A DNA stretch of 64,000 nucleotides, from contig OZ242180.1 in the NCBI GenBank assembly GCA_965205485.1, positions 1,344,001-1,408,000 on the forward strand, written 5' to 3'. Position 1 is the first letter of the stretch, and every line of letters starts with the position of its first letter. The notes beneath the pieces were generated by a model, which was not told the DNA's origin, searched no databases, and saw only the letters and a program-made list of their open reading frames with translations. Below are positions 11,214 through 29,098 of this stretch, piece after piece. The position numbers were made by a program, and so were the translations under genes. The stretch comes from Candidatus Latescibacterota bacterium. Lineage in GTDB: Bacteria; Latescibacterota; UBA2968; GCA-2709665.

Positions 11214-11294
11214 GGCTTGTTTCTCGTCAGAAAACCGTGGCAGGAACCGGACGCACACCGGACAGACGCTTTCAACGGTCTGTCAGGGGACAAC

Positions 11295-11681: not shown

Positions 11682-11710
11682 TTGACATTTAACAATCCTT
11701 ATGATATACT
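11682..11710 (+). promoter_or_regulatory. Sigma70 promoter of the nuo-mrp-atp cluster
   Basis: TTGACA-17 bp-TATACT with an extended -10 TGn. Confidence 0.75.
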
Positions 11711-11763: not shown

Positions 11764-11929
11764 TAGCAGTCCGTTGATAAAGTCGCTCCGCAGGCGAGGC
11801 CGAGCCATTGTGGCCGAAGACAAGGCGCGCAACCGAGTCCCATCCTGCGATTCGGCGAGGGCGCGCAACGCAGTATTTCGACCGCAAGGGCCGGCCGTAG
11901 CCCGGATGGACTTTTTCAACGGGCTGTTA
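11764..11929. mobile_element. MITE family B, copy 1 (in the nuoA leader)
   Basis: TIRs GCAGTCCGTTGATAAAGTC / GACTTTTTCAACGGGCTGT, TA-flanked; related copies at 28924 and 35774. Confidence 0.8.
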
Positions 11930-11953: not shown

Positions 11954-12319
11954 ATGCTGGTCGATTATCTTCCGATTGTTATTCTGATGGCAGTTGCCGT
12001 CGGGTTTGCAGCCGTCAGTTTAATCATTACGCATCTGTTCGGACCCCGCCGTCCCAACCCGGTGAAATTGTCGCCGTACGAGTCGGGCGTTCCTCCCGTG
12101 GGCGACGCCAGGCTGAGGTTTTCTGTCAAGTTCTACGTTGTGGCGATGCTGTTTATCGTCTTCGATATCGAAGTCGTTTTTCTATACCCCTGGGCCGTTG
12201 TCTTCAAGGATCTGCTGGCCCAGGGGAGCTTTGTTTTTACGGAAATGGCGGTGTTCCTCGGGGTCCTGGTTCTCGGGCTCGCGTATGTCTGGCGGAAGGG
12301 CGGGCTGGATTGGGACTGA
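11954..12319 (+). CDS. nuoA: NADH-quinone oxidoreductase subunit A
   Basis: [40 protein letters not shown]. Confidence 0.95.
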
Positions 12320-12375
12320 GGTCGGAAGCGACCGAAAAACAAACTTTCATCGACCGGCGAAGATTGGGCCGGACC

Positions 12376-14148
12376 ATGCCCATGGAAACGAAGAACGGGA
12401 CGCCGATTGCGCACATGAACGCTGACAACCTGACTTCGAAGAAGCTGGCGGAACGGTTCGGCGAAGACGTCCTCGAGGTTTCGGATTTTCGCGGCGACTG
12501 GGTGGCGGTCTGCGAGGCGGACCGGGTGTCGGATATGCTGGCCTTTCTGCGGGACGATCCGGACCTGGCGTTCGACCGTCTGTCGGATGTGACGGCGGTC
12601 GATTATTCCGAGTATCCGGGACCGCATCCGGGCACCCGGTTCAACGTGGTCTATCATCTATATTCCCACCTTCACAACCACCGGTTCAGGCTCAGGGCGA
12701 AGGTGGATGAAGAAACCTGCTGCATCCCGTCCGCGTGCGGGTTGTGGAAGGGGGCCGAGTGGCCGGAGCGTGAAGCCTACGATATGTTCGGCATCCGGTT
12801 CGAGGGGCATCCGGATTTACGGCGCATATTGATGCCGGTGAATTTCAAATACCATCCGCTGAGAAAGGACTACCCGGTAAACGGCCGCGGAGAACGGGAC
12901 GTCATCGCGCCGGAAGATCCCGGGTTCGAGGGCAATCCCTTCGAGGGCGACGATTCGCCCGACAGCGACCCGCTGGCATCGGAACGCATGGTCCTGAATC
13001 TTGGACCCCAGCATCCGGCAACCCATGGAACGCTGCGGCTCACGCTCGAACTGGAAGGCGAGCGCATCTCCAGGTGCATTCCGGACATCGGCTACCTGCA
13101 TACCGGCTTTGAAAAACTGGGTGAACACCATACCTACAACCAGTGGGTCACGGTGACCGACCGGATGAACTACCTTTCGCCGTTGTGCAATAACATCGGT
13201 TTTGCGATGACGGTGGAAGAACTGATGGGCCTGGAAATCCCGCCGCGCGCCACGGTAATCCGCGTCATCCTGTCGGAGCTTTCGCGCATCGCGGACCATA
13301 TGGTCTGGCTGGGCACGCACGCGCTGGATATCGGCGCGATGACAGTGTTCCTGTACACCTTCGAACAACGTGAACGCCTTTACGATATCTTCGAGGCCGT
13401 CACGGGGACCCGTTTGACCACGAGTTATACGCGGGTCGGAGGTCTGGGCTGGGACGTGCCCGACAATTTCCACGAACTGGTAACGGACTTCACGGCGCAA
13501 TTCCCCAGGGCGGCAGGGGAGGTGGACAGGCTGTTGACCCGAAACAGGATCTGGATCGACCGTACCAAGGGAATCGGCGTGATTTCGGCCGAAGACGCCA
13601 TCGCGTGGAACATGACGGGGCCGATGGCGCGCGGGTCGGGCGTGAACTACGATTTGCGGAAGGCCGAACCCTATCTGGGCTACGAGGAGTATGACTTCGA
13701 TGTTCCCGTGGGCGAGAAGGGCGATGTATACGACCGCTACCTCGTCCGGATGGAGGAATTGAACCAGAGCATCCGGATCGTCGAACAGGCGGTGAACAAC
13801 CTGCCCGGAGGCCCCGTCAAGGTCGACGACGCCAAGGTCATCCTTCCCGAGAAGGACGACGTGTATACCGGCATGGAATCGCTGATCCACCACTTCAAGG
13901 TAACGATGGACGATCACGGAATCGCGCCGCCCCCCGGAGAGATCTACGTGGCTACGGAGAGCCCCAACGGTGAATTGGGCTTCTATATTGTCAGCGACGG
14001 AAGCGGCGCAGCCTACCGGCTCCGGGTACGGCCCCCGTCGTTCATGAATTACCAGTGTTTCCCGCAACTGGCGAACGGGCATATGGTGGCCGACGTCGTG
14101 GCCATTCTGGGAAGCATTAACGTCATCGCGGGAGAGCTGGATCGATGA
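12376..14148 (+). CDS. nuoCD: Fused NADH-quinone oxidoreductase subunit C/D
   Basis: [22 protein letters not shown] and HPLRKDYP (C); [31 protein letters not shown] (D). Confidence 0.95.
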
Positions 14149-14178
14149 CCGCGACATCATCTTCACGGGCACACAGAA

Positions 14179-14658
14179 ATGGCGATCGCACTGTCTGAAA
14201 AGACACGGGAGAAGTGTGAGAAGTTAATCACGCACTATCCGCCGGAGTGGCGCAAGGCGGCAATCCTTCCGGTTCTGCACCTTGCGCAGAAGGAGTGGGG
14301 GTATATATCTCTGGAAGGACTGAGATACGTCGCGGAACTTCTGGAAATCCCGCCCGCCCATGCAGCGGGCGTGATGAGCTTCTATCCCATGTTCCACAAG
14401 GCGCCCGTAGGGAAATACGTCATTCACGTGTGCGGAACGCTGTCCTGTGCGCTCTGCGGGGCCCGAGAAATCACGAAGCACCTGAAGGAAAAGCTGAAAA
14501 TCGACGTGGGCGAAACCACCGCGGACGGACGATTCACGCTGGCCAAGGTGGAATGCATCGCGGCCTGCGAGGGTGCGCCGGCGGTACTGATCAACGAGGA
14601 TCTGCATCGCTGCGTGACACGGGAGAAGCTGGACCGTCTCCTTGACGGGTGCGCGTGA
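14179..14658 (+). CDS. nuoE: NADH-quinone oxidoreductase subunit E
   Basis: CGTLSC...CIAAC [2Fe-2S] N1a ligands. Confidence 0.93.
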   Translation: MAIALSEKTREKCEKLITHYPPEWRKAAILPVLHLAQKEWGYISLEGLRYVAELLEIPPAHAAGVMSFYPMFHKAPVGKYVIHVCGTLSCALCGAREITKHLKEKLKIDVGETTADGRFTLAKVECIAACEGAPAVLINEDLHRCVTREKLDRLLDGCA

Positions 14659-14678
14659 AACAGAACGATTGAGCGGAT

Positions 14679-15968
14679 ATGCCCGAAGAATACAAGATCA
14701 TCACCGAACGCTTCGGCGTCGAAGGCCTCCGGAATATAGACGTCTACAGGGCCCATGGCGGATACCGCGCTATTGAGAAGGCCTTTGGAATGTCGCAGGA
14801 CGAGGTGATCGACGAGGTGCGGGAGGCGGCGCTGGCGGGACGGGGAGGCGCGTGGTTTCCGGCAGGCGTAAAATGGGGCTTCATGCCGAAAGAGCCCCGT
14901 GAGCCCAGCTATCTCTGCGTCAATGCCGACGAGAGCGAACCGGGCACGTTCAAGGACCGGCACCTGATGGAGCAGGATCCGCATCAGATGCTCGAAGGCA
15001 CCATCATCGCGTCCTACGCGATGCGGGTGAGCGTGGCATACGTCTATATCCGCGGCGAAATGTTCGAGGCGAGGACGATCGTGGAACAGGCGATCGCCGA
15101 GGCGCGGGCAGCGGGATACATCGGCCGGGACATCCTGGGGTCCGGCTACGATCTGGAGGTCTACGTCCACCCCGGCGCCGGCGCATATATCTGCGGCGAG
15201 GAAATGGGTCTGATCCAGTCCCTTAACGGAAACCGCGCCGAGCCGCGTTCAAAGCCTCCGTTTCCCGCCCAGCAGGGCGTTTTCGAACGGCCCACCACGG
15301 TGAACAACGTCCAGACGCTTTCCTACGTACCCCATATCGTGAACCGGGGCGCGGACTGGTTCAAGGGAATCGGCAGCGAACGGTTTCCGGGCACGTTCAT
15401 CTTCTGCGTCAGCGGGCACGTGAACAGGCCGGGGATGTTCGAACTGGAAACCGGCGCGTTCACGATGCGCCAGATCATCGAGGATTTCGCGGGCGGCGTA
15501 CGCGACGGGCATGAACTGAAAGCCGTGATTCCGGGCGGGGCCTCAACACCTCCGATGACACCCGACCAGATCGATATCGTGATGGATCCGTCGAACTTTC
15601 TGGCGCCGGGCGGCGGCGAATTCCAGGGCATGTTCGGCACGGGCGGGATCATCGTGATGGATGAAACAACCTGCATGGTGGATGCGTTGTTGAATTTCAT
15701 GGTCTTCTTCGCGCACGAGTCCTGCGGTCAGTGTACGCCGTGCCGCGAGGGATGTCCCTGGGCGCGAGACATCGTGTGGCGGATCGAAAACGGTCTCGGG
15801 AAACCGGGCGACCTGGATACCCTGCTCGACGTTGCCCATAACGTCGGGCCGTTTTTGTGTCCGCCCTCGAGGTTGACAACCATATGCGGTTTCGGCGGGG
15901 CATTCGCAAATCCGATCCACGGATTCGTTCAAACGTTCCGCGACGAGTTCGAAGCCCATATCAAGTAA
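14679..15968 (+). CDS. nuoF: NADH-quinone oxidoreductase subunit F
   Basis: GRGGAWFP, NADESEPGTFKD, YICGEE, ESCGQCTPCREG...TIC (N3). Confidence 0.95.
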   Translation: MPEEYKIITERFGVEGLRNIDVYRAHGGYRAIEKAFGMSQDEVIDEVREAALAGRGGAWFPAGVKWGFMPKEPREPSYLCVNADESEPGTFKDRHLMEQDPHQMLEGTIIASYAMRVSVAYVYIRGEMFEARTIVEQAIAEARAAGYIGRDILGSGYDLEVYVHPGAGAYICGEEMGLIQSLNGNRAEPRSKPPFPAQQGVFERPTTVNNVQTLSYVPHIVNRGADWFKGIGSERFPGTFIFCVSGHVNRPGMFELETGAFTMRQIIEDFAGGVRDGHELKAVIPGGASTPPMTPDQIDIVMDPSNFLAPGGGEFQGMFGTGGIIVMDETTCMVDALLNFMVFFAHESCGQCTPCREGCPWARDIVWRIENGLGKPGDLDTLLDVAHNVGPFLCPPSRLTTICGFGGAFANPIHGFVQTFRDEFEAHIK

Positions 15969-16020
15969 GAACGATGCCGCGGTCGCAGGACAAGCCAATT
16001 TGGTTCCAGGGTAAACAACT

Positions 16021-17637
16021 ATGCCGACATTTACGATAGATGGCAGTGAAATCGAAATCGTTCCCGGAAAGAACGTGCTCCAGACGGCGATCGATAACGG
16101 AATATTCGTTCCGCACTACTGCTACCACCCGGGGCTGAGCGCGCCCGCAAACTGCCGCATGTGCCTTGTGGAGATGGAGGTGGGCGGCCGAAGCAGCCTT
16201 GGTCCTTCCTGCTCCGCCATGCCTGCCGAGGGTATGGTCGTGGATACGCAGTCCGACGTCGTCAAGGAAAACCAGAATGCCGTGATGGAGTTCCTGTTGG
16301 TGAACCATCCTCTGGACTGTCCCGTGTGCGATCAGTCCGGAGAGTGCGAACTACAGGATTACAGCTATACCTACGGATCCGACAGGAGCCGGTATCACGA
16401 GAAGAAGCTGGTCCAGCCCAAGAAAGACGTCGGCCGGCACGTGTTGTTGTATTCCGACCGGTGCATCCGGTGTACCCGCTGTACCCGGTTCTGCGACGAG
16501 ATTTCGGGGACCGGCGAACTGGGGTATTTCAACCGGGGCGTCCATAACGAGATCGACGTCTTCCCGGGCGCGCGGATGGACAATCGCCTGTCCGGCAATA
16601 CGGTGGATATCTGCCCGGTGGGCGCGCTGCTGGACAAGTCGTTCCTTTTCAAGCAGCGTGTATGGTTTCTGAAGTCGGTTGACACCATCTGCCCCGGATG
16701 CAGCACGGGCTGCAACATCAGGGCCGATTACAACAACGAACGGATCTACCGGCTCGTGCCGCGTCAGAATCCGGACGTGAACGAGTACTGGATGTGTGAC
16801 GACGGCCGCCACGGGTGGGGTTATGTACACGGCGACGACCGGCTTCTGTTTCCGATGTTGGGAAGAGGCGAGGAACAGGAACTGGCGTTGTGGGAGGCCG
16901 CACTGGACGCGGCAAGGGCAGGGTTCGAACGCATTCGGACGGATTACGGCGAGAATGCCGTGGCCGGTATTGCGTCGGCCTGTCTCACCAACGAAGAGCA
17001 TTACCTGTTCGGAAGCCTCTTCCGGAGCGGGCTGGCCGGAGGCCCCGTCGCGGTTCGTAACCGCGTCAGCGACGAAGGCGACGTGGTGTTCAAGGGCGGT
17101 TTCACCATTCACGCCGACAAGTCTCCGAACGCACGCGGCGCGCGGACCGTACTCGAGGGTCTTGGGTTGTCTCCGGTCGATACCTCCGAGATCTGGCGCG
17201 GCGTGGCCGATGGACGGATTCGGGGACTCTACCTGGCGGGCGGCGATCCGCTGGAATCGTTGTCCGACGAGGAACAGGCGGCACTCTCATCATTGGAATT
17301 CCTGGTCGTTCAGGATGTTCTGACCCGCGATTGGACGGCGATGGCGGACGTGGTCCTTCCCGGCGCGGCCTTTATCGAGAAGGACGGCACGTTTACAAAC
17401 GTCGACGGGCGGGTGCAGCGTATAAGGCAGGGCCTGGCGCCAGCGGGCGATGCGCGGCCCGACTGGGAGATCCTGCGGGACGTCAACCGTGTGATGGGGG
17501 GCGAGGCTGCGCAGACCGGGGTCGAAGAGGTCATGGCCGACATGTCGAATGCCATCGCGGCTTTCAGAGGGATGGACTACGACGTTATCGGTGAAGAGGG
17601 CCGACCGCTCATTGAGATCGAGGCATCGGGGACGTAA
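16021..17637 (+). CDS. nuoG: NADH-quinone oxidoreductase subunit G (short form, 538 aa)
   Basis: CYHP..NCRMC..C (N1b), HPLDCPVCDQSGEC (N5), CIRCTRC..CPVGAL (N4), CPGCSTGC..C (N7). Confidence 0.9.
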   Translation: MPTFTIDGSEIEIVPGKNVLQTAIDNGIFVPHYCYHPGLSAPANCRMCLVEMEVGGRSSLGPSCSAMPAEGMVVDTQSDVVKENQNAVMEFLLVNHPLDCPVCDQSGECELQDYSYTYGSDRSRYHEKKLVQPKKDVGRHVLLYSDRCIRCTRCTRFCDEISGTGELGYFNRGVHNEIDVFPGARMDNRLSGNTVDICPVGALLDKSFLFKQRVWFLKSVDTICPGCSTGCNIRADYNNERIYRLVPRQNPDVNEYWMCDDGRHGWGYVHGDDRLLFPMLGRGEEQELALWEAALDAARAGFERIRTDYGENAVAGIASACLTNEEHYLFGSLFRSGLAGGPVAVRNRVSDEGDVVFKGGFTIHADKSPNARGARTVLEGLGLSPVDTSEIWRGVADGRIRGLYLAGGDPLESLSDEEQAALSSLEFLVVQDVLTRDWTAMADVVLPGAAFIEKDGTFTNVDGRVQRIRQGLAPAGDARPDWEILRDVNRVMGGEAAQTGVEEVMADMSNAIAAFRGMDYDVIGEEGRPLIEIEASGT

Positions 17638-17651
17638 CACCGGGCGCACTT

Positions 17652-18692
17652 ATGGACTTCGCCATTGAAAGTACAGTCAAGATCGTTGTGGTATTCGGCG
17701 GGCTCATGGGCGCGGTCGCCTATCTCGTACTGGCGGAGCGGAAGATCAGCGCATATATCCAGAACCGTCTGGGTCCGAACCGGGTGGGGCCGTGGGGATT
17801 GCTCCAGCCGATTGCCGACGGTCTCAAGTTTCTCTTCAAGGAAGACGTGATCCCCCGGCACGTGAACCGCTTCGTCTATCTTGCCGCGCCGCCCGCCATT
17901 CTCGTCCCCGCGCTGATGGGTTTCGCCATCGTGCCGTTCGGTGACTCCATTACCCTGTGGGGCCGCGAGATCCGGCTGCAGATCGCGGACGTGAATATTG
18001 GTATCCTCTATCTCCTTGCACTGGCGTCGCTGGGGGTCTACGGCGTCGTTCTTGGCGGCTGGGCGTCCAACAACAAGTATGCCCTGCTGGGCGGGCTGCG
18101 GGCGTCCGCTCAGATGATCAGCTACGAACTGGCGCTCGGGTTGTCGCTGATCGGCGTGCTGATGGCCGCGGGCACGTTGCAACTGAATGAAATCGTCATG
18201 CAGCAGTCGGAACGGACGCTGTTCGGTTTTCTGCCTGGATGGAACGTATTCACGCAGCCGCTCGGGTTCGTGTTGTTCACCGCTGCCGCGTTCGCCGAGA
18301 GCAACCGGCTGCCGTTCGATCTGCCGGAGTCCGAACAGGAACTGGTGGCCGGATATCACGCCGAGTACAGCAGTATGAAGTTCGCCATGTTCTTCATGGC
18401 CGAGTATGCCCATATGATCACGGCGTCGGCCGTTATCGCCACGCTGTTCTTCGGTGGCTGGCATATGCCCTGGCTGGTGGACCCCGGAAGTACCTCGATT
18501 GGCGCCAGCCTGCTCAAGGTACTCGCTTTTCTGGTCAAGACCGGATTCTTCATGTTCCTGTTCCTGTGGGTACGCTGGACCCTTCCGCGCTTCCGGTACG
18601 ATCAGGTGATGTGGCTGGGGTGGAAGGTGCTGCTGCCGCTGGCGCTTCTGAACGTCTTCTTGACCGGGCTTTATCTGACACTAACGTACTGA
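17652..18692 (+). CDS. nuoH: NADH-quinone oxidoreductase subunit H
   Basis: ERKISA.IQNRLGPNRVG, QPIADGLK, AESNRLPFDLPE.EQELVAGY, PRFRYDQ. Confidence 0.96.
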   Translation: MDFAIESTVKIVVVFGGLMGAVAYLVLAERKISAYIQNRLGPNRVGPWGLLQPIADGLKFLFKEDVIPRHVNRFVYLAAPPAILVPALMGFAIVPFGDSITLWGREIRLQIADVNIGILYLLALASLGVYGVVLGGWASNNKYALLGGLRASAQMISYELALGLSLIGVLMAAGTLQLNEIVMQQSERTLFGFLPGWNVFTQPLGFVLFTAAAFAESNRLPFDLPESEQELVAGYHAEYSSMKFAMFFMAEYAHMITASAVIATLFFGGWHMPWLVDPGSTSIGASLLKVLAFLVKTGFFMFLFLWVRWTLPRFRYDQVMWLGWKVLLPLALLNVFLTGLYLTLTY

Positions 18693-18701
18693 GTGACACT
18701 G

Positions 18702-18865
18702 AGAAGCTGTTTTAAAACTCCCGGCGGTCTTCGCGCGGCTGCAAAAGCGCCGGTCGGCGTTGGTCAAACCCACCCGTATCCTTAGATATGGGCGGCTTTT
18801 CCCGCCTTGACCGCCACTTTTTCGCTCGCGATCGGGAACTCACCGGTAATTTTAAAACAGCTTCT
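18702..18865. mobile_element. MITE family C, copy 1 (in the slot normally held by nuoI)
   Basis: TIRs AGAAGCTGTTTTAAAA / TTTTAAAACAGCTTCT; copies at 34235 (inverted) and 59271. Confidence 0.82.
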
Positions 18866-18889
18866 AAGCGGCGCCCTGCGGGAGGGATA

Positions 18890-19426
18890 ATGGAGCAAAT
18901 ATTCTTTTTCGTTTTTGCCGCAATCGCGCTGGTTGCGGCAGTGCTCCTCGTCGCGTTTCGAAATCCGGTCTACAGCGCCCTGTCTCTGGTGGCTGCGTTC
19001 TTCGCCCTGGCAGGGCTTTTTGTTTTGCTGAATGCGTATTTCCTGGCGGTGGTCCAGATTATCGTGTACGCCGGCGCAATCATGGTACTCTTCCTGTTCG
19101 TAATCATGCTTCTGAACCTGGGTCATTCCGACACCCTTGAGCGCGTCGCGGGCAAATATCGACGCGTCGCCGTTGTCCTTCTCGCGGCGGCTCTGGTGGC
19201 GCAACTGGGCTTCATGGCAGGACGGCGCTGGGTCGGCACGCCCGCGTCGGGAGAGGCGCCGCTGTTTACCGACAACATCAACGCCATCGGCAAAATGCTG
19301 TATACCAGGTATCTGTTTCCCTTCGAGGTGGTTTCCCTGATTCTGCTGGTCGCCCTGATCGGCGTGATGGTCATGGTGAAAGGGGACCGGGAAAGCGGAG
19401 GAAACCAGTCCCGGCAGGCGCCCTGA
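18890..19426 (+). CDS. nuoJ: NADH-quinone oxidoreductase subunit J
   Basis: NPVYSALSL, QIIVYAGAIMVLFLFVIMLL, YLFPFEV; GGAGG RBS. Confidence 0.95.
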   Translation: MEQIFFFVFAAIALVAAVLLVAFRNPVYSALSLVAAFFALAGLFVLLNAYFLAVVQIIVYAGAIMVLFLFVIMLLNLGHSDTLERVAGKYRRVAVVLLAAALVAQLGFMAGRRWVGTPASGEAPLFTDNINAIGKMLYTRYLFPFEVVSLILLVALIGVMVMVKGDRESGGNQSRQAP

Positions 19427-19746: not shown

Positions 19747-20052
19747 ATGGCAGTTCCGGTTACCTATTACCTGATACTGAGCGCGATGCTGTTCGCCATC
19801 GGCGTGACGGGCGTGCTGATTCGCCGCAACGCGATCGTAATCTTCATGTGCATCGAACTGATGCTGAACGCGGTCAATCTCCTGTTTGTGACGATGGCGC
19901 GCTATATGGGTTCGGGTTCCGGGCAGGTATTCGTATTTTTCGTGATGGCGGTGTCCGCTGCCGAAGTGGCGGTCGGACTGGCGATCATCATTGCGCTTTA
20001 CAGGAACAGGCAGACTTTGGACGTGGGTGACGTGAATCTGTTGAAATGGTAG
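19747..20052 (+). CDS. nuoK: NADH-quinone oxidoreductase subunit K
   Basis: [27 protein letters not shown] end. Confidence 0.96.
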
Positions 20053-20095
20053 GCGCCGCGTTTTACCCTGTCTGTTGATTTGTGTGGAATTGAAA

Positions 20096-21955
20096 ATGCT
20101 TACCGTAGTCATTCTGATCGTTCTCTTTCCGCTGGCCGGCGCGGCCGTTAACGGTTTGTTCGGGTACCGGCTGCGGCAGGCGTCAGGATATATTGGCGCC
20201 GCGGCGGTCGGTCTGTCGTGGGTTCTGTCTCTGCGCGTTCTGTTCTGGGTGATGGGCGGTGGAGAACTGAACGAAGACGTGTACGCGTGGATCGTGGCGG
20301 GCTCGTTCCATGCCTCGGTGGGGTTCCAGGTCGATGCACTGTCGACGATCATGATCGTGACGGTGACGACGATCTCGTTTCTGATCCATGTGTATTCTTT
20401 CGGATATATGCGCAACGACCCGGGGTTTGCCAGATTCTTCGCCTACCTCAACCTGTTTGTGTTCTCTATGCTGGTTCTGGTGCTCGCGAACAACTATCTG
20501 CTGATGTTCGTGGGTTGGGAAGGCGTTGGATTGTGTTCATATCTCCTCATCGGCTTCTGGTACGAGCGGAAATCCGCTTCCGACGCCGGCAAAAAGGCGT
20601 TCATCGTCAACCGGATCGGGGATTTCGGTTTCCTGCTTGGCATCTTTCTGATGGCGAGTTACCTGGGCACGGTGCAGTACGCCGAGGTATTCGAAAAGGC
20701 GCCCCTGATGTTGTCCACGGGGGTTGCGACGGCGATTGCGCTGTTGCTCTTTCTCGGCGCCTGCGGCAAGTCGGCGCAGTTTCCGCTTTACGTCTGGCTG
20801 CCGGACGCAATGGAGGGCCCCACGCCCGTCAGTTCATTGATCCATGCGGCGACCATGGTCACGGCGGGGGTCTATATGGTGGCCCGTTCGAATGTGCTGT
20901 ATACCCTCGCGCCCACCGCCGGGGCCGTGGTGGCCTGGGTCGGCGTCGCCACGGCGTTGCTGGCCGCGACCATCGCGCTGGTGAATACCGACATCAAACG
21001 CGTCCTGGCCTATTCAACGGTCAGCCAGCTGGGGTACATGTTCATTGGCGTGGGCGTCGGCGCATATACCGCCGGAATCTTCCACCTGTTCACACACGCG
21101 TTCTTCAAGGGTTTGATGTTTCTGGCCGCCGGCAGTGTGATGCACGCGATGCAGGACGAGCTGGATATGCGGAAGATGGGAGGGCTGCTGGGCAGGATGC
21201 GGGTGACCGGCGTAACGTTCTGGATCGGCGCGCTCGCCATCGCGGGAATCCCGCCGCTTGCGGGCTTCTGGAGCAAGGACGAAATCCTGGTGAGCGCCTA
21301 CCGCTCCGGAAACGTGGCGATCTGGGCTCTGGGCGTCCTGGGGGCGGTCCTTACGGCTTTTTATATGTTCCGGCTGATCCTGATGACTTTCCATGGAAAA
21401 CCCCGGGATCAGCGCCTGTACGACCACGCTCACGAGTCGCCGGCGAACATGACCGTCCCGCTGATCGTTCTGGCGCTGGGATCGGCCTTTGTGGGATTCG
21501 TGGGCGTTCCCCCGGGTCACGGCTGGATCGATGGGTTCCTGAGCGGTACGACCGGTGCGGCCCACCATGCGGCATCGGGAGGATTGTCCGGCGGCATGCT
21601 GGTGGGTATTTCCGTCCTTGCGGGCCTGGTGGGAATCGGACTCGCATACCGGATGCACAGAGAAGGCCGGCTGGGAGCGGCATCCTCGAACGCCGTTCAC
21701 GGGCTGCTGATACGCAAGTGGTACGTGGACGAGATTTACGACGCCCTCATCGTCCGGCCGATTCATCGGCTATCGCTGGTACTGGCGCGGGTTCTGGATG
21801 CAATCGTGGTGGACGGAATCGCGAACGGGCTGGGCCTGCTGGTGAAGGGCGCGGGCTGGGTCGTTACCCGCTTTCAGTCCGGCAACGCGCCCACCTATGC
21901 GCTCTGGATGGTAATCGGCGTGGTCGCGGTAATCTACTACGTCTCGGGGAACTGA
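20096..21955 (+). CDS. nuoL: NADH-quinone oxidoreductase subunit L
   Basis: WEGVGLCSYLLIGFW, KSAQFPL..WLPDAMEGPTPVS, KWYVDEIYD lateral-helix start; about 619 aa. Confidence 0.95.
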   Translation: MLTVVILIVLFPLAGAAVNGLFGYRLRQASGYIGAAAVGLSWVLSLRVLFWVMGGGELNEDVYAWIVAGSFHASVGFQVDALSTIMIVTVTTISFLIHVYSFGYMRNDPGFARFFAYLNLFVFSMLVLVLANNYLLMFVGWEGVGLCSYLLIGFWYERKSASDAGKKAFIVNRIGDFGFLLGIFLMASYLGTVQYAEVFEKAPLMLSTGVATAIALLLFLGACGKSAQFPLYVWLPDAMEGPTPVSSLIHAATMVTAGVYMVARSNVLYTLAPTAGAVVAWVGVATALLAATIALVNTDIKRVLAYSTVSQLGYMFIGVGVGAYTAGIFHLFTHAFFKGLMFLAAGSVMHAMQDELDMRKMGGLLGRMRVTGVTFWIGALAIAGIPPLAGFWSKDEILVSAYRSGNVAIWALGVLGAVLTAFYMFRLILMTFHGKPRDQRLYDHAHESPANMTVPLIVLALGSAFVGFVGVPPGHGWIDGFLSGTTGAAHHAASGGLSGGMLVGISVLAGLVGIGLAYRMHREGRLGAASSNAVHGLLIRKWYVDEIYDALIVRPIHRLSLVLARVLDAIVVDGIANGLGLLVKGAGWVVTRFQSGNAPTYALWMVIGVVAVIYYVSGN

Positions 21956-21959
21956 ACCT

Positions 21960-23486
21960 ATGCCTGGACTCCTTACAGGCCTGATTTTTGTACCATTGTT
22001 TGGCGGTGTTCTGGTCCTGCTGTTCGGTCGCGGCCGGGACGGATTCAGCCGCGTGTTCGCTCTGGCAGCGGCATCTGTGAATTTGCTGCTGTCCTTTTTG
22101 TTGTACGCCGATTTCAGAGCAGGCGTTCCCGGGATGCAGTTTGTGGAAAGGGTTGAGTGGGTGGGCCAGTTCGGCATCTCGTATTTCGTGGGAATCGACG
22201 GAATCAGTCTGTTGCTGGTACTGGTGACTACCCTGCTCACGTTCCTGGCGATTCTCGCCTCCTGGTCGTCGATTACGTCCCGGGTGCGGGAGTACATGGC
22301 GTCGATGCTTCTGCTGGAAACCGGGATGGTGGGGGTGTTCTGTGCCCTGGACCTGTTCCTCTTCTATGTTTTCTGGGAGGCCATGCTGATTCCGATGTAT
22401 TTGTTGATCGGCGTCTGGGGCGGTGAACGCCGGATCTATGCGGCGGTGAAGTTCGTGCTGTTCACCCTGGCCGGCAGCCTGTTGATGCTCGTGGCGATTG
22501 TCTATCTCGGTCTGCAGTACGATACATTCGATCTCATGGTTCTACAGAAGATGACCTATCTGCACCCGCAGCAGCACTGGCTTTTCCTGGCATTTTTCCT
22601 GAGTTTCGCCATCAAGGTCCCGCTGTTTCCGCTTCATACATGGTTGCCGGACGCGCACGTCGAGGCGCCAACGGCGGGCAGTGTCATCCTCGCGGGGGTT
22701 CTGCTCAAGATGGGGACCTACGGGTTGATCCGGTTCTGCCTGCCGTTGTTCCCGCTGGCGGCATTGTACTTCACGCCTTACATCATGGCGCTCTCCGTGG
22801 TCGGCATCGTGTACGGCGCCCTGGTCGCGATGGTACAGACGGATATCAAGAAACTGGTGGCTTACTCGAGTGTGAGCCACCTGGGGTTTGTGGTCCTTGG
22901 CATTTTCGCCATGAATGCCCAGGGTATGCAGGGCGGAATCATCCAGATGGTGAACCACGGACTGTCAACGGGAGCGCTGTTTCTGATTGTGGGTATGATA
23001 TACGAACGGCGGCATACGCGGCTGATTGCCGATTTCGGAGGACTGGCCAAAACCATTCCGGTATTCGCCACCTTCTTTTTGATTACAACGCTTTCTTCCA
23101 TCGGACTTCCCGGGCTGAACGGGTTTGTCGGCGAGTTTCTGATCCTCCTCGGAGCCTTTAAGGCAAACATGGTGTATGGCATCATAGCCGCGTCGGGTGT
23201 CGTCCTTGCCGCCGTTTACATGCTGTGGATGTTCCAGCGCGTGGTGTGGGGAGAGGTGACGGACGAACGTAACCGGAAACTGCCGGACCTGACCCCGCGC
23301 GAATGGCTCATCCTGACGCCGCTCGTGGTCCTGATGTTCTGGATTGGCCTGTACCCGGGAACATTTCTGAAGAAAACGGAATTGTCGGCCAAACTCGTGG
23401 TAGAACAGGTGCGCATACGGCAGATAGAAAGCCTGAACGAACTATACGTGTTGGATCGCAAAGACGAGAAAGACCTGATCGAATGA
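21960..23486 (+). CDS. nuoM: NADH-quinone oxidoreductase subunit M
   Basis: FYVFWE, KVPLFPLHTWLPDAHVEAPT, LLKMG.YG, FVGEF. Confidence 0.95.
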   Translation: MPGLLTGLIFVPLFGGVLVLLFGRGRDGFSRVFALAAASVNLLLSFLLYADFRAGVPGMQFVERVEWVGQFGISYFVGIDGISLLLVLVTTLLTFLAILASWSSITSRVREYMASMLLLETGMVGVFCALDLFLFYVFWEAMLIPMYLLIGVWGGERRIYAAVKFVLFTLAGSLLMLVAIVYLGLQYDTFDLMVLQKMTYLHPQQHWLFLAFFLSFAIKVPLFPLHTWLPDAHVEAPTAGSVILAGVLLKMGTYGLIRFCLPLFPLAALYFTPYIMALSVVGIVYGALVAMVQTDIKKLVAYSSVSHLGFVVLGIFAMNAQGMQGGIIQMVNHGLSTGALFLIVGMIYERRHTRLIADFGGLAKTIPVFATFFLITTLSSIGLPGLNGFVGEFLILLGAFKANMVYGIIAASGVVLAAVYMLWMFQRVVWGEVTDERNRKLPDLTPREWLILTPLVVLMFWIGLYPGTFLKKTELSAKLVVEQVRIRQIESLNELYVLDRKDEKDLIE

Positions 23487-23541
23487 ACCGGACGTCGGGT
23501 GCGTTCGGCCGTTGCACAACGTGTCGTGGAGGAAATCGGGT

Positions 23542-24027
23542 TTGAGAGTTCTGATGAGTCTCGGCGTTGTATTGTTCGGTGTATGGCTGCTCTGGTCTGG
23601 CCACTATACCATCGAACGTACGCTGGTTCTCGTGCTTGGGATCGTCTCCTGTCTGGCGGTGATCGGCATCGTCAGGCGGATGGGCATTGTCGATTCCGAG
23701 GGGCATCCCATCCACCTGGCAGGCCGTGCAATCGTGTACGTTCCGTGGCTGCTGCTTGCCATTCTCCGGTCCAATGTCGACGTGACATTGCGAATCCTGA
23801 ATCCACGCCTGCCCGTCAGCCCCACCCTGATTCGTACCAGGGCAACCCAGAAGACCGCGATGGGCAAGGTCATCTACGCCAACTCGATAACGCTCACTCC
23901 CGGGACGGTTTCGGTAGAAGTGGAGAACGACTTTATTCTCGTCCACGCGCTCTCGCGAGAAAGCGCCGAAGAACTCGCGGACGGTGAAATGGACCGCCGC
24001 GTACGGGCGGTGGAGGGAGGGTCCTGA
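23542..24027 (+). CDS. mrpE: Mrp Na+/H+ antiporter subunit E
   Basis: YANSITLTPGT motif; TTG start after GGAGG. Confidence 0.9.
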   Translation: MRVLMSLGVVLFGVWLLWSGHYTIERTLVLVLGIVSCLAVIGIVRRMGIVDSEGHPIHLAGRAIVYVPWLLLAILRSNVDVTLRILNPRLPVSPTLIRTRATQKTAMGKVIYANSITLTPGTVSVEVENDFILVHALSRESAEELADGEMDRRVRAVEGGS

Positions 24028-24314
24028 TGTTTGCGGCGGCGATGGCGGCGATTCTGATCACGATGGTTCTGGCTCTGGTTCGGGCGTTCGCGGGTCCGAC
24101 GGTTTACGACCGTATCCTCGCCGCGAATATGTTCGGCACCAAGATGATCCTCCTGATCGCGGTGATGGGCTTTCTTACCGGCAGGCCGGATTTTCTCGAC
24201 CTGGCGCTGATATACGTCCTGCTGAACTTCATCGGGACGTTTGCCGTACTCAAGTTCGTTCAGTACGGCAGTTTCGGTGCAGCTGACGGCGAGAACGGAG
24301 AGTCCACCGGATGA
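24027..24314 (+). CDS. mrpF: Mrp antiporter subunit F
   Basis: GPTVYDRILA, 3 TM segments. Confidence 0.9.
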   Translation: MFAAAMAAILITMVLALVRAFAGPTVYDRILAANMFGTKMILLIAVMGFLTGRPDFLDLALIYVLLNFIGTFAVLKFVQYGSFGAADGENGESTG

Positions 24315-24619
24315 TGGTCATCTATGTCGCCAGCTGGGCATGTCTGCTCCTGGGGTCGTTCTTCTGTATCGTGGGCGGTATCGGGCTGCTCAGACTTCCC
24401 GATTTCTACAGCCGCATGCACGGCGCCGGCATTACCGATACGCTCGGCGCCGGGCTCTTGCTCGTGGGGCTGATGCTGCAGGGCGGCCTCAGCATGGTCA
24501 CCGTGAAACTGTTTCTGATCCTCCTGCTGGTCTTCTTGACCGGCCCCGCATCGACCCATGCGGTTGCAAAGGCCGCCTTCACCTCCGGGTTGAAGCCTCT
24601 GGATAATCACCAGCCATGA
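24311..24619 (+). CDS. mrpG: Mrp antiporter subunit G
   Basis: GLLRLPDFYSRMH, TGPASTHA. Confidence 0.9.
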   Translation: MMVIYVASWACLLLGSFFCIVGGIGLLRLPDFYSRMHGAGITDTLGAGLLLVGLMLQGGLSMVTVKLFLILLLVFLTGPASTHAVAKAAFTSGLKPLDNHQP

Positions 24620-25185
24620 TCGAACTCATCGACGTTGTTCTGCTGGCTTTCCTGGTCGCCACCGCCGTCGCCGTCGTTCTCATCCGCAACCTGCTCGCCT
24701 CCGTGATCCTGGCCGGAATCTTCAGCCTGCTTTCCGCGGGGCTGTTTACCGTCATGGACGCCGTCGACGTGGCTTTTACCGAGGCCGCCGTGGGAGCGGG
24801 CATTTCCACCGTACTGCTTCTCGGTACCCTCCTGCTGACAACGCGGGTGGAGAGGAAGCCCTCCCGGGTGTCACCGCTTCCCCTTCTCGTGGTCCTGGCG
24901 ACGGGGGCGGTCCTGATCTACGGAACGCTGGACATGCCGCGTTTCGGCGACGCCGGGGCGCCGGTGCATACCCATATCGCGCCTGAATACCTCAAGGATT
25001 CCGTGCCGCACGTCGATGGTTCAGCGCAACGCGTGGACGTTGAGAATATCGTGACTTCCGTCCTTGCCAGCTACAGAGGATACGATACGCTTGGCGAGAC
25101 CACGGTGATCTTTTGCGCGGGCATCGGGGTGTTGCTGCTGCTGAAGGGGTCACGGCCGGGCCGCGACCGGGAGGAAGGGCGGTGA
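24616..25185 (+). CDS. Mrp subunit B-related protein (DUF4040 plus MnhB N-terminal part)
   Basis: DAVDVAFTEAAVGAG, NIVTSVLASYRGYDTLGE. Confidence 0.85.
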   Translation: MIELIDVVLLAFLVATAVAVVLIRNLLASVILAGIFSLLSAGLFTVMDAVDVAFTEAAVGAGISTVLLLGTLLLTTRVERKPSRVSPLPLLVVLATGAVLIYGTLDMPRFGDAGAPVHTHIAPEYLKDSVPHVDGSAQRVDVENIVTSVLASYRGYDTLGETTVIFCAGIGVLLLLKGSRPGRDREEGR

Positions 25186-25601
25186 AACATCAGATCATAC
25201 CGAGGGTCATCGCCAAGCTGCTCATCCCGCTGATCCTTCTGTTTGCGCTATACGTCCAGTTTCACGGCGATTTCGGGCCCGGAGGGGGGTTCCAGGCTGG
25301 CGTGATCTTCGCGGCTGCGTTCGTGCTCTACACCCTGATCTTCGGTCTGGAAGAGGCGAAGCGTGTGGCCAGGCCCGCCGTCGTGGAAATCGTCATTGCC
25401 CTGGGCCTGCTCCTGTATGCGGTCACCGGGGTCGCGGGGATATTGAAGGGCGGCCGCTACCTGGACTACGGTGTGCTGGGAACGGATCCGGTGGGCGGCC
25501 AGCATCTGGGGATTCTATTGATCGAACTGGGCGTGGGAATCACCGTGGCTTCGGTGATCATCGGGGTCTTCTTCGCCTTTGTCGGCAGGACGAGATCATG
25601 A
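25182..25601 (+). CDS. mrpB: Mrp antiporter subunit B
   Basis: HGDFGPGGGFQAG, IELGVG; GTG start overlapping the upstream stop. Confidence 0.88.
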   Translation: MKHQIIPRVIAKLLIPLILLFALYVQFHGDFGPGGGFQAGVIFAAAFVLYTLIFGLEEAKRVARPAVVEIVIALGLLLYAVTGVAGILKGGRYLDYGVLGTDPVGGQHLGILLIELGVGITVASVIIGVFFAFVGRTRS

Positions 25602-25957
25602 CCGCGTTCCCGGGTTTATACAACTACTGGATCGTCATCGTCCTGATGATGATCGGGTTCTACGCGGTGATCGCCAGCGGCAATCTGGTCAAGAAACTGA
25701 TCGGCCTGAATATCTTTCAGACGTCGGTCTTCCTGTTCTACATCAGCCTGGGCAAGGTCTCCGGTGGGAGTGCGCCGATCATCGCGGAGGGAGTGCAGAG
25801 CTATTCGAACCCGCTGCCGCACGTGCTCATTCTCACGGCGATCGTGGTCGGTATCGCCACGACGTCTCTCGGGTTGGCGCTCGTGGTGCGCATACAGGAA
25901 GCCTACGGCACAATAGAAGAACAGGAAATCTACGATCAGGGTGAGGAGACGCCCTGA
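25598..25957 (+). CDS. mrpC: Mrp antiporter subunit C
   Basis: NLVKKLIGL, NPLPHVLILTAIVVG. Confidence 0.92.
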   Translation: MTAFPGLYNYWIVIVLMMIGFYAVIASGNLVKKLIGLNIFQTSVFLFYISLGKVSGGSAPIIAEGVQSYSNPLPHVLILTAIVVGIATTSLGLALVVRIQEAYGTIEEQEIYDQGEETP

Positions 25958-27474
25958 TGTCCGTCCACCTGCCCGCTTTGCAGATCGTGGTACCCCTCAT
26001 CGCCGCGCCTGTCTGCCTGTTGCTCAGGCGAAGGATGCTGGCCTGGGCCTTCGCCGCGGCTGTCGCATGGACGGCGATGGGGATTGCCGCGCTGCTGCTC
26101 ATAAGGGTCCTGGATTCCGGCACGATCTCATACGCGCTGGGAAGCTGGAGCGCCCCCTGGGGGATCGAGTATCGGATCGATGCGGTCAATGCGTTCGTCT
26201 TGCTCCTGGTGGCTTCCATAGGCGCTATTGTACTCGTTTACGCGCCTCACAGCGCGGCCCGGGAAATCCCGCACGACCGTCACTATCTGTTTTACGCGGC
26301 ATATCTCATGTGCCTGACGGGCCTGCTGGGCATCGCCATTACGGGCGACGCGTTCAACCTGTTCGTCTTCATCGAGATTGCCTCCCTTTCAACCTACGCG
26401 CTGATCAGCCTTGGAAGCGACCGACGCGCCCTGACGGCCGCCTACCAGTACCTGGTGATGGGCACCGTCGGGGCGACATTCATCCTGATCGGCGTGGGGC
26501 TCCTGTATATGGCAACCGGGACCCTGAACATGGCGGACCTCGCGGTCCGTCTGGGCCCGGCCCTGGGCACCCGCACCGTGCTGGCGGCGTTCGCGTTCCT
26601 CAGCGTGGGCCTGTGCCTGAAACTGGCCCTGTTTCCCCTGCACATGTGGCTGCCCAACGCGTATTGTTATGCGCCGTCGATGGTGACGGCCTTTCTTGCG
26701 GCAACGGCGACCAAGGTCTCCATCTATGTCCTCCTCCGGTTCATCTTTACCGTGTTCGGACCCCGATTCGCATTCGATACGATCGGGATCCAGGTCGTGC
26801 TGTTGCCGCTTTCGATCCTGGGAATCTTCGCGGCCTCAACGGTGGCCATCTTTCAGACGAACATCAAGCGTATGCTCGCCTGGTCCAGCGTCGCACAGGT
26901 CGGATACATGATGCTGGGCGTCGGCCTTGTGTCGGTGAGCGGCGCCGGACCGGATATCCGGTTCGGGCCGGGATCGCTGAACGGCCTGACGGCGGGAATC
27001 GTCCACCTCTTCAACCACGCGGTGATGAAGGGCGCGCTGTTCCTTGGCATGGGTTGTGTCGCCCTCCGCGTGGGCTCCGTAAAACTCGACGACATGCACG
27101 GTCTCGGACGCCGCATGCCGGTGACGATGGCCGCCTTTGTACTCGGAGGCCTCAGCCTGATCGGCGTACCGCTCACGGTGGGCTTCATCAGCAAGTGGTA
27201 CCTGGTTCTGGCTGCCCTGGAGAAAGGCTGGTGGCCGGTAGCGGTACTGGTCCTGCTGGGTTCCCTGCTGGCGGTCGTGTACGTATGGCGCGTGGTTGAG
27301 GTCGCCTACTTCCGCAAGCCCCCCACTACGGCCGGCACAGACGAGGCGCCGATGCTGATGCACATCCCGATGTGGGTCCTGATCGCGGCCACCCTCTATT
27401 TCGGGATTTCGACCTCCTTCACGGTTGGCGTTGCCCGGCAGGCCGCCGGATGGCTCATGGGCATCTCGCCATGA
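25957..27474 (+). CDS. mrpD: Mrp antiporter subunit D (first)
   Basis: TGDAFNLFVFIEI, K.ALFPLH.WLPNAY, KRMLA.SS. Confidence 0.9.
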   Translation: MSVHLPALQIVVPLIAAPVCLLLRRRMLAWAFAAAVAWTAMGIAALLLIRVLDSGTISYALGSWSAPWGIEYRIDAVNAFVLLLVASIGAIVLVYAPHSAAREIPHDRHYLFYAAYLMCLTGLLGIAITGDAFNLFVFIEIASLSTYALISLGSDRRALTAAYQYLVMGTVGATFILIGVGLLYMATGTLNMADLAVRLGPALGTRTVLAAFAFLSVGLCLKLALFPLHMWLPNAYCYAPSMVTAFLAATATKVSIYVLLRFIFTVFGPRFAFDTIGIQVVLLPLSILGIFAASTVAIFQTNIKRMLAWSSVAQVGYMMLGVGLVSVSGAGPDIRFGPGSLNGLTAGIVHLFNHAVMKGALFLGMGCVALRVGSVKLDDMHGLGRRMPVTMAAFVLGGLSLIGVPLTVGFISKWYLVLAALEKGWWPVAVLVLLGSLLAVVYVWRVVEVAYFRKPPTTAGTDEAPMLMHIPMWVLIAATLYFGISTSFTVGVARQAAGWLMGISP

Positions 27475-28937
27475 CCGCTTCGGATGCCACGCTGCTCGCC
27501 GTTGTGCTGCCTCTGCTCGGCGCCCCGCTGATCGGCCTTCTCGGAAACAGGCCCAATCTGCGGGAGACGGCCACGCTGGTCACCGGCGGCGTGCTGTTTT
27601 TCGTGGTACTCTCACTGGTACCGGTGGTCCTTTCGGGTTCGAGACCCGGCATACAGATTCTGGAGGTGATGCCGGGCCTGGCGCTGGCCTTCGAAGTCGA
27701 ACCGCTGGGCATGCTCTTCGGGTTGATCGCCTCCGGACTCTGGATCCTGACGTCTCTGTATTCCATCGGATACATGCGCGGTCATCACGAATCCAACCAG
27801 ACCAGCTTCTACGTCTTCTTCGCGGTGGCCATTTCGGGCGCCCTGGGCGTCGCGTTCGCCCGGAATCTGTTCACGCTGTTTATCTTCTACGAAGTGCTCA
27901 CCCTGTCAACCTATCCGCTGGTCACGCACCATCGGACGGAGGAAGCGCTCCGGTCGGGCAGGATCTACATGGGCATACTGCTCGGTACGTCTGTCGGGCT
28001 GATGCTGCTGGCAGTGGTGTGGACGTGGCAACTGACGGGCACCCTGGAATTCGTACCCGGCGGAATCCTCGCGGGCAAGGCGAGTCCGGCGGTGGTGGGC
28101 GTACTGCTGGCGCTCTACGCGTTCGGGACCGGCAAGGCGGCGCTGATGCCCTTTCACCGCTGGCTGCCCGCGGCGATGGTTGCGCCCACGCCCGTGAGTG
28201 CGCTGCTGCACGCGGTGGCCGTGGTCAAGGCGGGCGTGTTTACGGTGATGAAGATTGTGGTCTACATCTTCGGCATCGACCTGCTCGCGGACACCGGTAT
28301 GAGCCTGTGGCTGGCCTACGTCGCCGCGGCAACCCTGCTGATCGCGTCCCTGGTGGCATTGACCAAAGACAATCTCAAGGCGCGTCTCGCCTATTCCACG
28401 GTCAGCCAGTTGTCCTACGTGGTGCTGGGTGCGGCTCTTGCCAATAGCTGGGGCATTATTGGCGGCTCCATGCATATCGCGATGCACGCCTTCGGAAAGA
28501 TCACGCTGTTCTTCTGCGCCGGCGCAATCATGGTGGCCGCGCACAAAACGGAAATCAGCGACATGGCGGGTATCGGGAAGACGATGCCGGTTACGATGTT
28601 CGCGTTTTTTGTGGGGTCGCTCAGCGTAATCGGCCTGCCCCCGCTCGGCGGTTCGTGGAGCAAGTGGTACCTGGCGCTGGGCGCGGCGGATGCGGACCGG
28701 ATCATCTTCGTGGCCGTATTGCTAATCAGTTCACTCCTGAACGTCGCGTACCTGATGCCGATCGTCGCACGCGCTTTTTTCGCGACACCCGCCACCGTGC
28801 CCGCCGATCCGTCTCCTATCCGGGAAGCCCCGGCGTTCTGCGTGGTACCCCTGTGCCTGACGGCGCTTGGATGTATGGCGCTCTTTTTCTTCGCCGACGA
28901 CATCTACCGGCTTCTGGCGCCCATAGCAGTCCGTTGA
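27471..28937 (+). CDS. mrpD: Mrp antiporter subunit D-like (second)
   Basis: LFIFYE, KAALMPFHRWLPAAMVAPTPVSALLHAVAVVK; the last codons and stop lie inside MITE B copy 2. Confidence 0.85.
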   Translation: MTASDATLLAVVLPLLGAPLIGLLGNRPNLRETATLVTGGVLFFVVLSLVPVVLSGSRPGIQILEVMPGLALAFEVEPLGMLFGLIASGLWILTSLYSIGYMRGHHESNQTSFYVFFAVAISGALGVAFARNLFTLFIFYEVLTLSTYPLVTHHRTEEALRSGRIYMGILLGTSVGLMLLAVVWTWQLTGTLEFVPGGILAGKASPAVVGVLLALYAFGTGKAALMPFHRWLPAAMVAPTPVSALLHAVAVVKAGVFTVMKIVVYIFGIDLLADTGMSLWLAYVAAATLLIASLVALTKDNLKARLAYSTVSQLSYVVLGAALANSWGIIGGSMHIAMHAFGKITLFFCAGAIMVAAHKTEISDMAGIGKTMPVTMFAFFVGSLSVIGLPPLGGSWSKWYLALGAADADRIIFVAVLLISSLLNVAYLMPIVARAFFATPATVPADPSPIREAPAFCVVPLCLTALGCMALFFFADDIYRLLAPIAVR

Positions 28938-29073
28938 TAAAGTCGCTCTGCGGGCGAGGCCGAAGACAAGGCGCACGACCGAATCGAATCGCGTGATTCG
29001 GCGAGGGAGCGCAACGCAGTAATTCGGCCACCAGAGCCGGCCGCAGCCCGGATGGGCCTTTTCAACGGGCTGA
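28924..29073. mobile_element. MITE family B, copy 2
   Basis: Same TIRs and internal sequence as 11764-11929. Confidence 0.8.
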
Positions 29074-29098
29074 TTGCCCATCCCTGACGGAAGAGACC

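Follow-up and report, generated by a model that had tools for sequence, protein, structure and literature searches.

Genes for complex I subunits NuoB and NuoI lie outside the nuo operon, in neighbourhoods of iron-sulphur cluster genes, in a Latescibacterota bacterium

A complex I operon with 12 of the 14 subunit genes

The 64,000-nucleotide stretch of a Candidatus Latescibacterota genome analysed here (the window, G000:C1:1344001-1408000, where G000 is the genome, one contig of 5.1 Mb) carries an operon for complex I that contains neither nuoB nor nuoI. Both genes are present elsewhere on the same contig, 2.9 Mb (nuoB) and 3.5 Mb (nuoI) from the operon; the window holds 12 of the 14 complex I subunit genes and the genome all of NuoA-N. 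Judged from their sequences, the 14 subunits very probably assemble into an ordinary NADH:quinone oxidoreductase encoded by a split operon. Below, G-labels denote genomes, L-labels loci and f1-f4 families, g1 and g2 are further labels of relatives, and family assignment of proteins was by hidden Markov model (HMM) with the cut-offs of the models. The operon and its surroundings comprise the following features.

11682..11710, + strand: predicted sigma70-type promoter, TTGACA-17-TATACT (from sequence)
11764..11929, strand unassigned: member of a second family of miniature inverted-repeat transposable elements (MITEs), between promoter and nuoA; 27-nt inverted arms, 68 places in the genome
11954..12319, + strand: nuoA (HMM)
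12320..12375, + strand: 56-bp spacer at the expected nuoB site; cognate nuoB at G000:C1:4260891-4261385 (+)
12376..14148, + strand: fused nuoCD, quinone-site His/Tyr/Asp kept (HMM, motifs, structural-chain alignment)
14179..14658, + strand: nuoE (TIGR01958 above cut-off)
14679..15968, + strand: nuoF, NADH/FMN motifs and N3 ligands kept (HMM, motifs)
16021..17637, + strand: nuoG, short form, 538 amino acids (HMM, motifs)
17652..18692, + strand: nuoH (HMM)
18699..18868, strand unassigned: MITE at the expected nuoI site; cognate nuoI at G000:C1:4831631-4832128 (-)
18890..19426, + strand: nuoJ (HMM)
19747..23486, + strand: nuoK, nuoL and nuoM with charged pump residues (sequence, motifs)
23512..31025, + strand: mrp-type antiporter cluster between nuoM and nuoN (named from sequence features, without HMM)
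31215..32663, + strand: nuoN, 7.7 kb behind nuoM and followed by the atp operon (sequence)

The gaps are as a sequence-only reading of this DNA had described them, with 56 bp between nuoA and nuoCD and a MITE between nuoH and nuoJ. The same reading had stated that no NuoB-type or 2x[4Fe-4S] open reading frame (ORF) occurs elsewhere in the window, and a tblastn search with the two NuoB and the two NuoI proteins found nothing there (best E 0.46), the only CxxCxxCxxxC-type ORFs in the window being those of NuoF and NuoG. It had also described the remaining subunits as intact, which the motifs bear out: HPATHG, DRMNY and HALD stand at NuoCD positions 213, 262 and 315, NuoCD aligns over its full length to solved NuoCD/49-kDa chains (e.g. 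7q5y_B and 7awt_D), the charged residues of NuoA, K, L, M and N are present, and so are the iron-sulphur (Fe-S) ligand motifs of NuoE, F and G and of the remote I and B. The roles of the quinone-site and pump residues are known, those of the pump residues from work on E. coli. In NuoG the four cysteines of N1b are present with a last spacer of 15 instead of 13. The loss of NADH, quinone or pump residues that would mark a degenerate complex I is not seen, the motifs in the window being intact.

The element between nuoH and nuoJ is a MITE by its short length (170 bp), its 26-nt terminal inverted repeats (88% complementary), its many copies (91 distinct places in the genome at a length of at least 120 bp) and its empty sites. 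An empty site (joint 18701>18867) occurs in contigs of all four sequencing runs, which represent two samples of one study and are possibly the source of the window itself, and one contig spans nuoF through nuoH into nuoJ free of the MITE. Among the 18 mapped relatives only G014 has the MITE here, two others have unassigned gaps of ∼200 bp, and the remaining ones have 25-73 bp between the matched segments. Because relatives and run contigs show the empty site, the MITE is a late, polymorphic insertion and not the displacer of nuoI, and we reject it as the cause of the loss of nuoI from the operon. A copy of the same MITE family lies upstream of rny, the gene that precedes the remote nuoI; with this position, the idea that the MITE flanks the orphan nuoI was likewise rejected.

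At the other gap, one X4 contig crosses from nuoA to nuoCD with no insert. An assembly error is excluded, mainly because independent assemblies share the layout. Further insertions surround the operon: the MITE at 11764..11929 is missing at this site in most relatives, another MITE-like element lies upstream of nuoA at window positions 11295-11461, and a 288-bp insertion between nuoJ and nuoK (window 19443-19732) is skipped in contigs of three runs and has neither another long copy in the genome nor inverted repeats.

The remote nuoB and nuoI genes

The sequence-only reading had offered two explanations for the gaps, relocation of both genes to a separate locus (perhaps swappable or fused) or a different connector. 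Relocation is the right one of the two. The genome has two nuoB and two nuoI genes. One pair sits within a second operon, nuoABCDHIJKLMN, which has no nuoEFG (C1:4242902-4253678, - strand), and the other is remote, intact, and located at two loci instead of one. The remote nuoB (C1:4260891-4261385, + strand) encodes 164 amino acids and scores 232 bits against TIGR01957 (cut-off 142.7), and the remote nuoI (C1:4831631-4832128, - strand) encodes 165 amino acids and scores 142 bits against TIGR01971 (cut-off 113). Both are ordinary full-length proteins that keep all cluster ligands, which refutes both a different connector and fusion; the idea of swappable parts finds no support, since the B and I of the second operon are present within that operon itself. 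The expectation that ordinary genes elsewhere would make this a simple split operon is borne out as far as the split goes, and fails in that the layout is not featureless: the two addresses are Fe-S biogenesis and oxidative-stress loci conserved across the class. Separate regulation of the two genes is plausible from this arrangement.

The gene order at nuoB is sufB-sufC-sufD-sufS-sufU-sufT-rrf2-nuoB-nfuA-radical SAM (S-adenosylmethionine) gene, divergent from the second nuo operon, and at nuoI it is sod-prx-erpA-rny-nuoI-iscU-like-queG-miaB-lipA. Names were given from sequence features to the suf core genes, prx, miaB and lipA. For NfuA, ErpA proper, the IscU-like protein, CysE and ApbC, the matches to the family models score under the equivalog cut-offs. 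Fe-S biogenesis genes occur at only four places in G000, and the rough chance of a random landing beside one is therefore below 1% (an estimate, with genes uncounted). NfuA, ErpA and Mrp/ApbC are described as Fe-S carriers (PMC8593673), and a two-hybrid test is reported to show interaction of H. pylori ApbC with Nqo9 and Nqo3 (PMC8144621).

The suf promoter contains a palindrome, AAACTTGAC-N6-GTCAAGTTT, which relatives conserve. A strict regular expression for it gave no match, and a weight matrix built from 11 sites in relatives was used instead. With this matrix the G000 suf promoter ranks first genome-wide (30.1 bits, the next site reaching 21.5), the nuoA and sod promoters score below zero, and the palindrome was not found at the nuoA (the predicted nuo operon promoter), sod, rny, apbC or rrf2-nuoB regions. 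Among the relatives, there is none before sufB in G031 and none was found in G042. The C-x9-C-x5-C motif of the Rrf2 protein and the GGCQGC motif of NfuA are kept in 24/24 sequences. The Rrf2 protein itself stays below the IscR and Suf-regulator HMM cut-offs (62 bits against 207 for TIGR02010), only the Rrf2 superfamily model being passed. In IscR-type control as described in PMC8593673, type 1 sites lie ahead of isc, erpA and nfuA, and the likeness of our locus to this control lies in a three-Cys Rrf2 gene in an Fe-S operon, nfuA and a promoter palindrome; unlike that system, the Rrf2 protein here falls below the IscR cut-off and the operon carries a respiratory client gene.

The remote nuoI is additionally joined to its upstream neighbour. 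The RNase Y frame passes the TIGR03319 cut-off, the model ending at residue 520 of 599, and its Arg/Lys-rich tail runs ∼60 codons into nuoI in the -1 frame (C1:4831947-4832128, - strand; L096). Across the 25 loci examined, the overlap measures 164-194 nt in 21/21 f1-f3 loci and 98 nt in two outside genomes, and in two f4 genomes the genes abut or overlap by 4 nt. Synonymous codons that would stop rny are found at 0/163 sites in nuoI codons 1-53 and at 59/408 after codon 66, a boundary picked after seeing the stops and counted among kin that are not independent, whereas other T-ending codons are not avoided in nuoI (18% versus 21.5%). Synonymous codon identity, computed with one genome from each of nine genera, is 0.72 for nuoI codons 1-30, the highest of 459 codon windows in 17 genes (mean 0.456, standard deviation 0.048); the next gene reaches 0.611, and the other genes show 0.35-0.53 over their first 30 codons. 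The peptide read in the RNase Y frame of this stretch of nuoI is conserved at an identity of 0.67 as compared with 0.38 in synonymous re-codings (maximum 0.435 of 300), and control regions agree with the re-coding simulation. A conserved RNA fold was not found in the 5′ region of nuoI, RNAalifold energies lying within those of column shuffles in all five windows tested. Dual coding is the likeliest reading of these patterns, and an unstructured RNA sequence signal in its place could produce the same pattern; in either case nuoI would be locked to rny. As an example of a long overlap between bacterial genes that is under selection, the conserved ∼60 codons shared by RNase Y and a respiratory subunit are unusual.

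Several observations concern the neighbours of these loci. The second, headless operon that is divergent from suf is conserved in f1 and part of f2. A separate NuoF-like/NuoG-like pair (C1:4123571-4127101, - strand; 40% and 29-38% identical), near an Fe-S protein match, is a candidate input module or dehydrogenase. Behind nfuA lie a radical SAM gene with a CUAEP/CCAEP tail and a convergent ATP-grasp-like gene (C1:4262027-4264803), which are conserved in f1. The IscU-fold protein behind nuoI (C1:4831228-4831608, - strand) has only the middle one of three cluster cysteines.

Pairing with the operon and history of the two genes

Relatives were searched in a first set of 31 and then in 132 genomes of the class, and the fetched regions were mapped. 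The layout counts include G000 and cover, for each junction, the genomes in which it was seen; 97 of the 132 class genomes, in which no NuoH like that of the window was matched at a strict threshold, do not enter them. The sequence-only reading had asked whether relatives share the gaps, and they do: nuoA adjoins nuoCD without nuoB in 20/31 genomes (three f4 genomes whose operon is canonical are among the other 11), and nuoH adjoins nuoJ without nuoI in 30/33 class genomes. The remote addresses are equally shared, rrf2-nuoB-nfuA being found in 21/24 and nuoI after rny in 31/31 fetched genomes with nuoI outside the operon; the 38 genomes with a NuoI match comprise these 31, three fetched in the order H-I-J, and four unfetched. 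Ligand motifs are kept in 36/36 NuoB and 34/34 NuoI sequences.

In eight relatives (G015, G035, G036, G041, G042, G043, G045 and G046) the orthologue of the suf nuoB, 88-93% identical, sits in the order nuoA-nuoB-nuoCD (93% in G015), and because of this position we regard the suf nuoB as the partner of the window operon. For nuoI, the closest homologues outside the group occupy the nuoH-nuoJ junction in operons of the same type, and NuoI and NuoH orthologues co-occur among class genomes. This comparison of sequences and positions identifies the remote NuoB and NuoI as cognate to the window operon.

The relatives also record intermediate states. G015, G042 and G045 have a suf operon with rrf2-nfuA and no nuoB, while G035 and G046 carry nuoB at both sites; the two copies of each genome share 78.5% DNA identity, and the proteins of the G035 pair are nearly identical. 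A tree computed from 13 proteins of the three loci, concatenated to 5,200 columns for 34 genomes, nests G015 and G036, both with the operon copy, in f1 and places them as sister to the suf-only G017 with a support of 1.0. The nuoB gene tree (28 sequences) groups by lineage and not by position; its outgroup branches are long, and therefore its root was not used and only shallow groupings were taken from it. The operon copy of G015 and the suf copy of G017 are 87.0% identical, no different from the other orthologues of these two genomes (83-90%). A deletion scar was sought after nuoA in G017 and rejected, as 6/8 bases like a nuoB start are too short for use. The simplest reading of these data is that nuoB was duplicated to the rrf2-nfuA site, that the copies coexisted with occasional homogenisation, and that one copy was repeatedly lost; the data would also fit a nuoB that moved repeatedly to this site and away from it. 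Besides f1, f2 and f3, the rny-nuoI arrangement occurs in two genera of f4 and in two genomes from outside the class sample, from which we infer that nuoI left the operon earlier than nuoB.

Exits of the same genes are seen in other settings. Neither nuo operon of G031 contains B or I, and the second also ends at nuoK; the genome has the genes in the order sufBCDSUT-nuoB1-cysE-like-nuoB2-nuoI2. An apbC/mrp gene stands directly before nuoB in G059, G061 and G062, and sod stands directly before an orphan nuoB at L307 (G160, a record titled Bacteroidota). In G132 and G141 nuoB moved with nuoG, and the B-C-I-D of the second set form their own cluster. In G135, a record titled Poribacteria, a full operon lacks B and I and a second operon lacks I, and nuoB lies 3 kb after apbC; at L235 of this genome two nuoI paralogues are 2.7 kb apart with a thiC-like gene (by eye) between them. 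Poribacteria as a second case of nuoB export was rejected, as 30/30 of the best loci have nuoA-B-C in order and only G135 differs, although nuoI lies more than 280 kb from nuoB in 17/17 Poribacteria genomes with both genes on one contig. In three Phycisphaerae genomes nuo genes are generally scattered, and nuoB was not seen in a suf operon in the three checked.

Around the window operon itself, the promoter spacing upstream of nuoA is the same in 12/12 relatives compared. Further upstream, as judged by eye, lie aldo-keto-reductase-like (8403-9251), Zn-alcohol-dehydrogenase-like (9480-10565) and GNAT-like (10635-11258) ORFs, the GNAT-like gene being a conserved divergent neighbour of the operon in f1 and f2. 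From 23512-38300 on, the nuo operon, the mrp-type set and the atp operon form an energy supercluster in the window. The mrp insert is patchy across the tree, being present in g1, g2, G041 and G046 and absent in G016, G017, G034, G035 and others.

A proposed Fe-S coupling, rival readings and what the layout means

We favour, with some confidence, the reading that the enzyme is an ordinary split complex I and that selection keeps NuoB and NuoI under promoters of genes that build, carry and protect Fe-S clusters. Selection for an Fe-S coupling of nuoB and nuoI, taken for itself, has by our estimate an even chance or slightly better on this comparative evidence. In this model nuoI would have left the operon early and then been locked to rny via the overlap, and nuoB would have been copied to the rrf2-nfuA site, where the copies coexisted until lineages lost one or the other. 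The three-Cys Rrf2 protein would bind the suf promoter palindrome, with the result that NuoB is co-produced with Suf and NfuA, and NuoB and NuoI would then join the NuoCD and NuoH made from the main operon. Should the Rrf2 protein behave as holo-IscR does at type 1 sites (PMC8593673), nuoB would be up at cluster scarcity; a rise of NuoB when clusters are scarce or damaged fits co-loading, replacement or repair better than iron sparing.

A number of observations weigh against such a coupling. The independent landings beside Fe-S genes (suf/nfuA, apbC or an originally intact iscU) are few, about three to four, and the relocation events share ancestry. The palindrome includes the -35 hexamer, and the training set of its matrix holds a same-genus site identical to that of G000. 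The gene directly upstream of nuoI is rny and not an Fe-S gene, and the IscU-like protein after nuoI keeps 1/3 of the conserved cysteines in 26/26 f1/f2 genomes (3/3 in 5/5 f3/f4 genomes). The suf position is dispensable, since nine relatives (G015, G036, G041, G042, G043, G045, G114, G115 and G117, with a nuoB of the window type or more distant) have nuoB only in the operon or with suf unseen. As suf is divergent from the second nuo operon, local rearrangement could bias the landings. G032 and G033 keep nuoB1-cysE-like-nuoB2-nuoI2 away from suf (loci L145, L147 and L149 belong to G031-G033), and in G132 and G141 nuoB-nuoG lies beside unrelated genes and rny-nuoI is without iscU. Poribacteria nuoI is an orphan in 4/4 fetched loci, beside a guaB-like or radical-SAM-like gene (by eye). 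In the phylum of G157 (record title Aminicenantes), which we take to be Acidobacteriota, nuoB is an orphan in 4 of the best 30 loci, with lpd, a convergent gene of the GcvT family or unnamed ORFs as neighbours; these 30 include the non-orphan L365 from the unpublished G244, and the best-hit samples in this phylum and in Poribacteria are biased towards the window-type NuoB subtype.

In one rival reading, NuoB and NuoI are small soluble subunits for which expression apart from the operon is tolerable; their genes were moved by chance duplication and loss and kept at any promoter suitable for aerobic growth, the Fe-S neighbours being inherited accidents. We consider such neutral traffic doubtful, yet it is the strongest of the rivals: neighbours are unrelated in Poribacteria and the phylum of G157, the nuoB position flips among close genera, the genomes are MITE-rich and rearranging, nuo genes are scattered in the three Phycisphaerae genomes, and nuo genes are reported as co-localised in 86% and thus not in 14% of complex I genomes (PMC4453560). 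However, the small nuoA, E, J and K of the window-type operon stayed put in the fetched f1-f3 regions while B and I moved repeatedly, G031 exported B and I from both of its operons, chance is an unlikely cause of landings next to suf/nfuA, apbC and an iscU that was intact at first, and the rny-nuoI overlap is under selection. A sharing or exchange of Q-module parts between the two complex I isoforms, in which separate control of NuoB and NuoI would allow mixing of the NADH-type and the headless enzyme, is improbable; 21/21 f1 relatives examined do carry at least two NuoB paralogues, and G031-G033 hold nuoB1, nuoB2 and nuoI2 in one cassette, but either operon is matched by cognate B and I genes of its own, the NuoB paralogues are only 56% identical, and nuoB is also exported in G059, G061 and G062, of which G061 and G062 have one NuoB match at the thresholds used. 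A different connector, or an operon decayed or misassembled with the MITE having removed nuoI, is scarcely credible: only the local absence and the MITE between nuoH and nuoJ speak for it, whereas intact cognate genes exist elsewhere, the catalytic motifs are intact, the same gaps recur in 20/31 and 30/33 assemblies, and MITE-free alleles occur in reads and relatives.

Compared with known systems, the complex I to which the window operon belongs shares with canonical 14-subunit NDH-1 the 14 subunits, a fused NuoCD, and the Fe-S ligand, quinone-site and pump motifs, and differs from it by a nuoB in the suf operon, a nuoI in the rny cluster and the mrp set between nuoM and nuoN. Split operons have been defined previously (PMC4758237), and nuoE, F and G are named as those that frequently lie outside it (PMC3144371). 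A split operon without B and I is of a kind already in print: acidobacterial nuoACDHJKLMN operons are listed with nuoB and nuoI at other locus tags (PMC6018796, supplementary file 1, Table S2b), the same two subunits being absent from the operon and encoded elsewhere, although the part of PMC6018796 that lists them leaves the neighbours without comment and the suf nuoB, the rny-overlapped nuoI and the two-copy genomes set the present layout apart. Nitrospina gracilis, which has two sets of complex I genes, similarly has a stand-alone nuoB2 that is not part of the NUO-2 operon, but its nuoF2 is also outside, its nuoI is in the cluster, and cofactor sites are altered, as described in PMC3578206. 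The 11-subunit headless complex I (PMC3144371) matches the second operon and not the window operon with its nuoEFG. A literature search found no report of a suf-operon nuoB, an rny-nuoI overlap or the layout in this phylum, in a literature whose subscription papers were mostly unsearched and whose supplements may hold such statements. New are the addresses of both genes beside Fe-S carriers, the repeated landings, the transitional genomes and the overlap.

For the annotation of respiratory genes this means that nuo operons without B and I should not be taken for incomplete or novel enzymes, and the two-copy genomes capture the exit from the operon in progress. More tentatively, several lineages may have independently put NuoI and NuoB, as the last [4Fe-4S] links to quinone, under the control of Fe-S biogenesis and oxidative stress, as a transcriptional Fe-S gate or a route for replacing damaged parts, a course that can be followed here via operon-copy, both-copy and suf-only genomes, with nuoI held by a dual-coding overlap; the neighbourhoods would then name the carriers for N2 and N6a/b (NfuA or ApbC for NuoB, ErpA/IscU for NuoI). 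If the coupling is true, gene order would be a testable pointer to the carriers that mature given complex I clusters, and to how cells match the assembly of their most Fe-S-rich enzyme to the supply of clusters.

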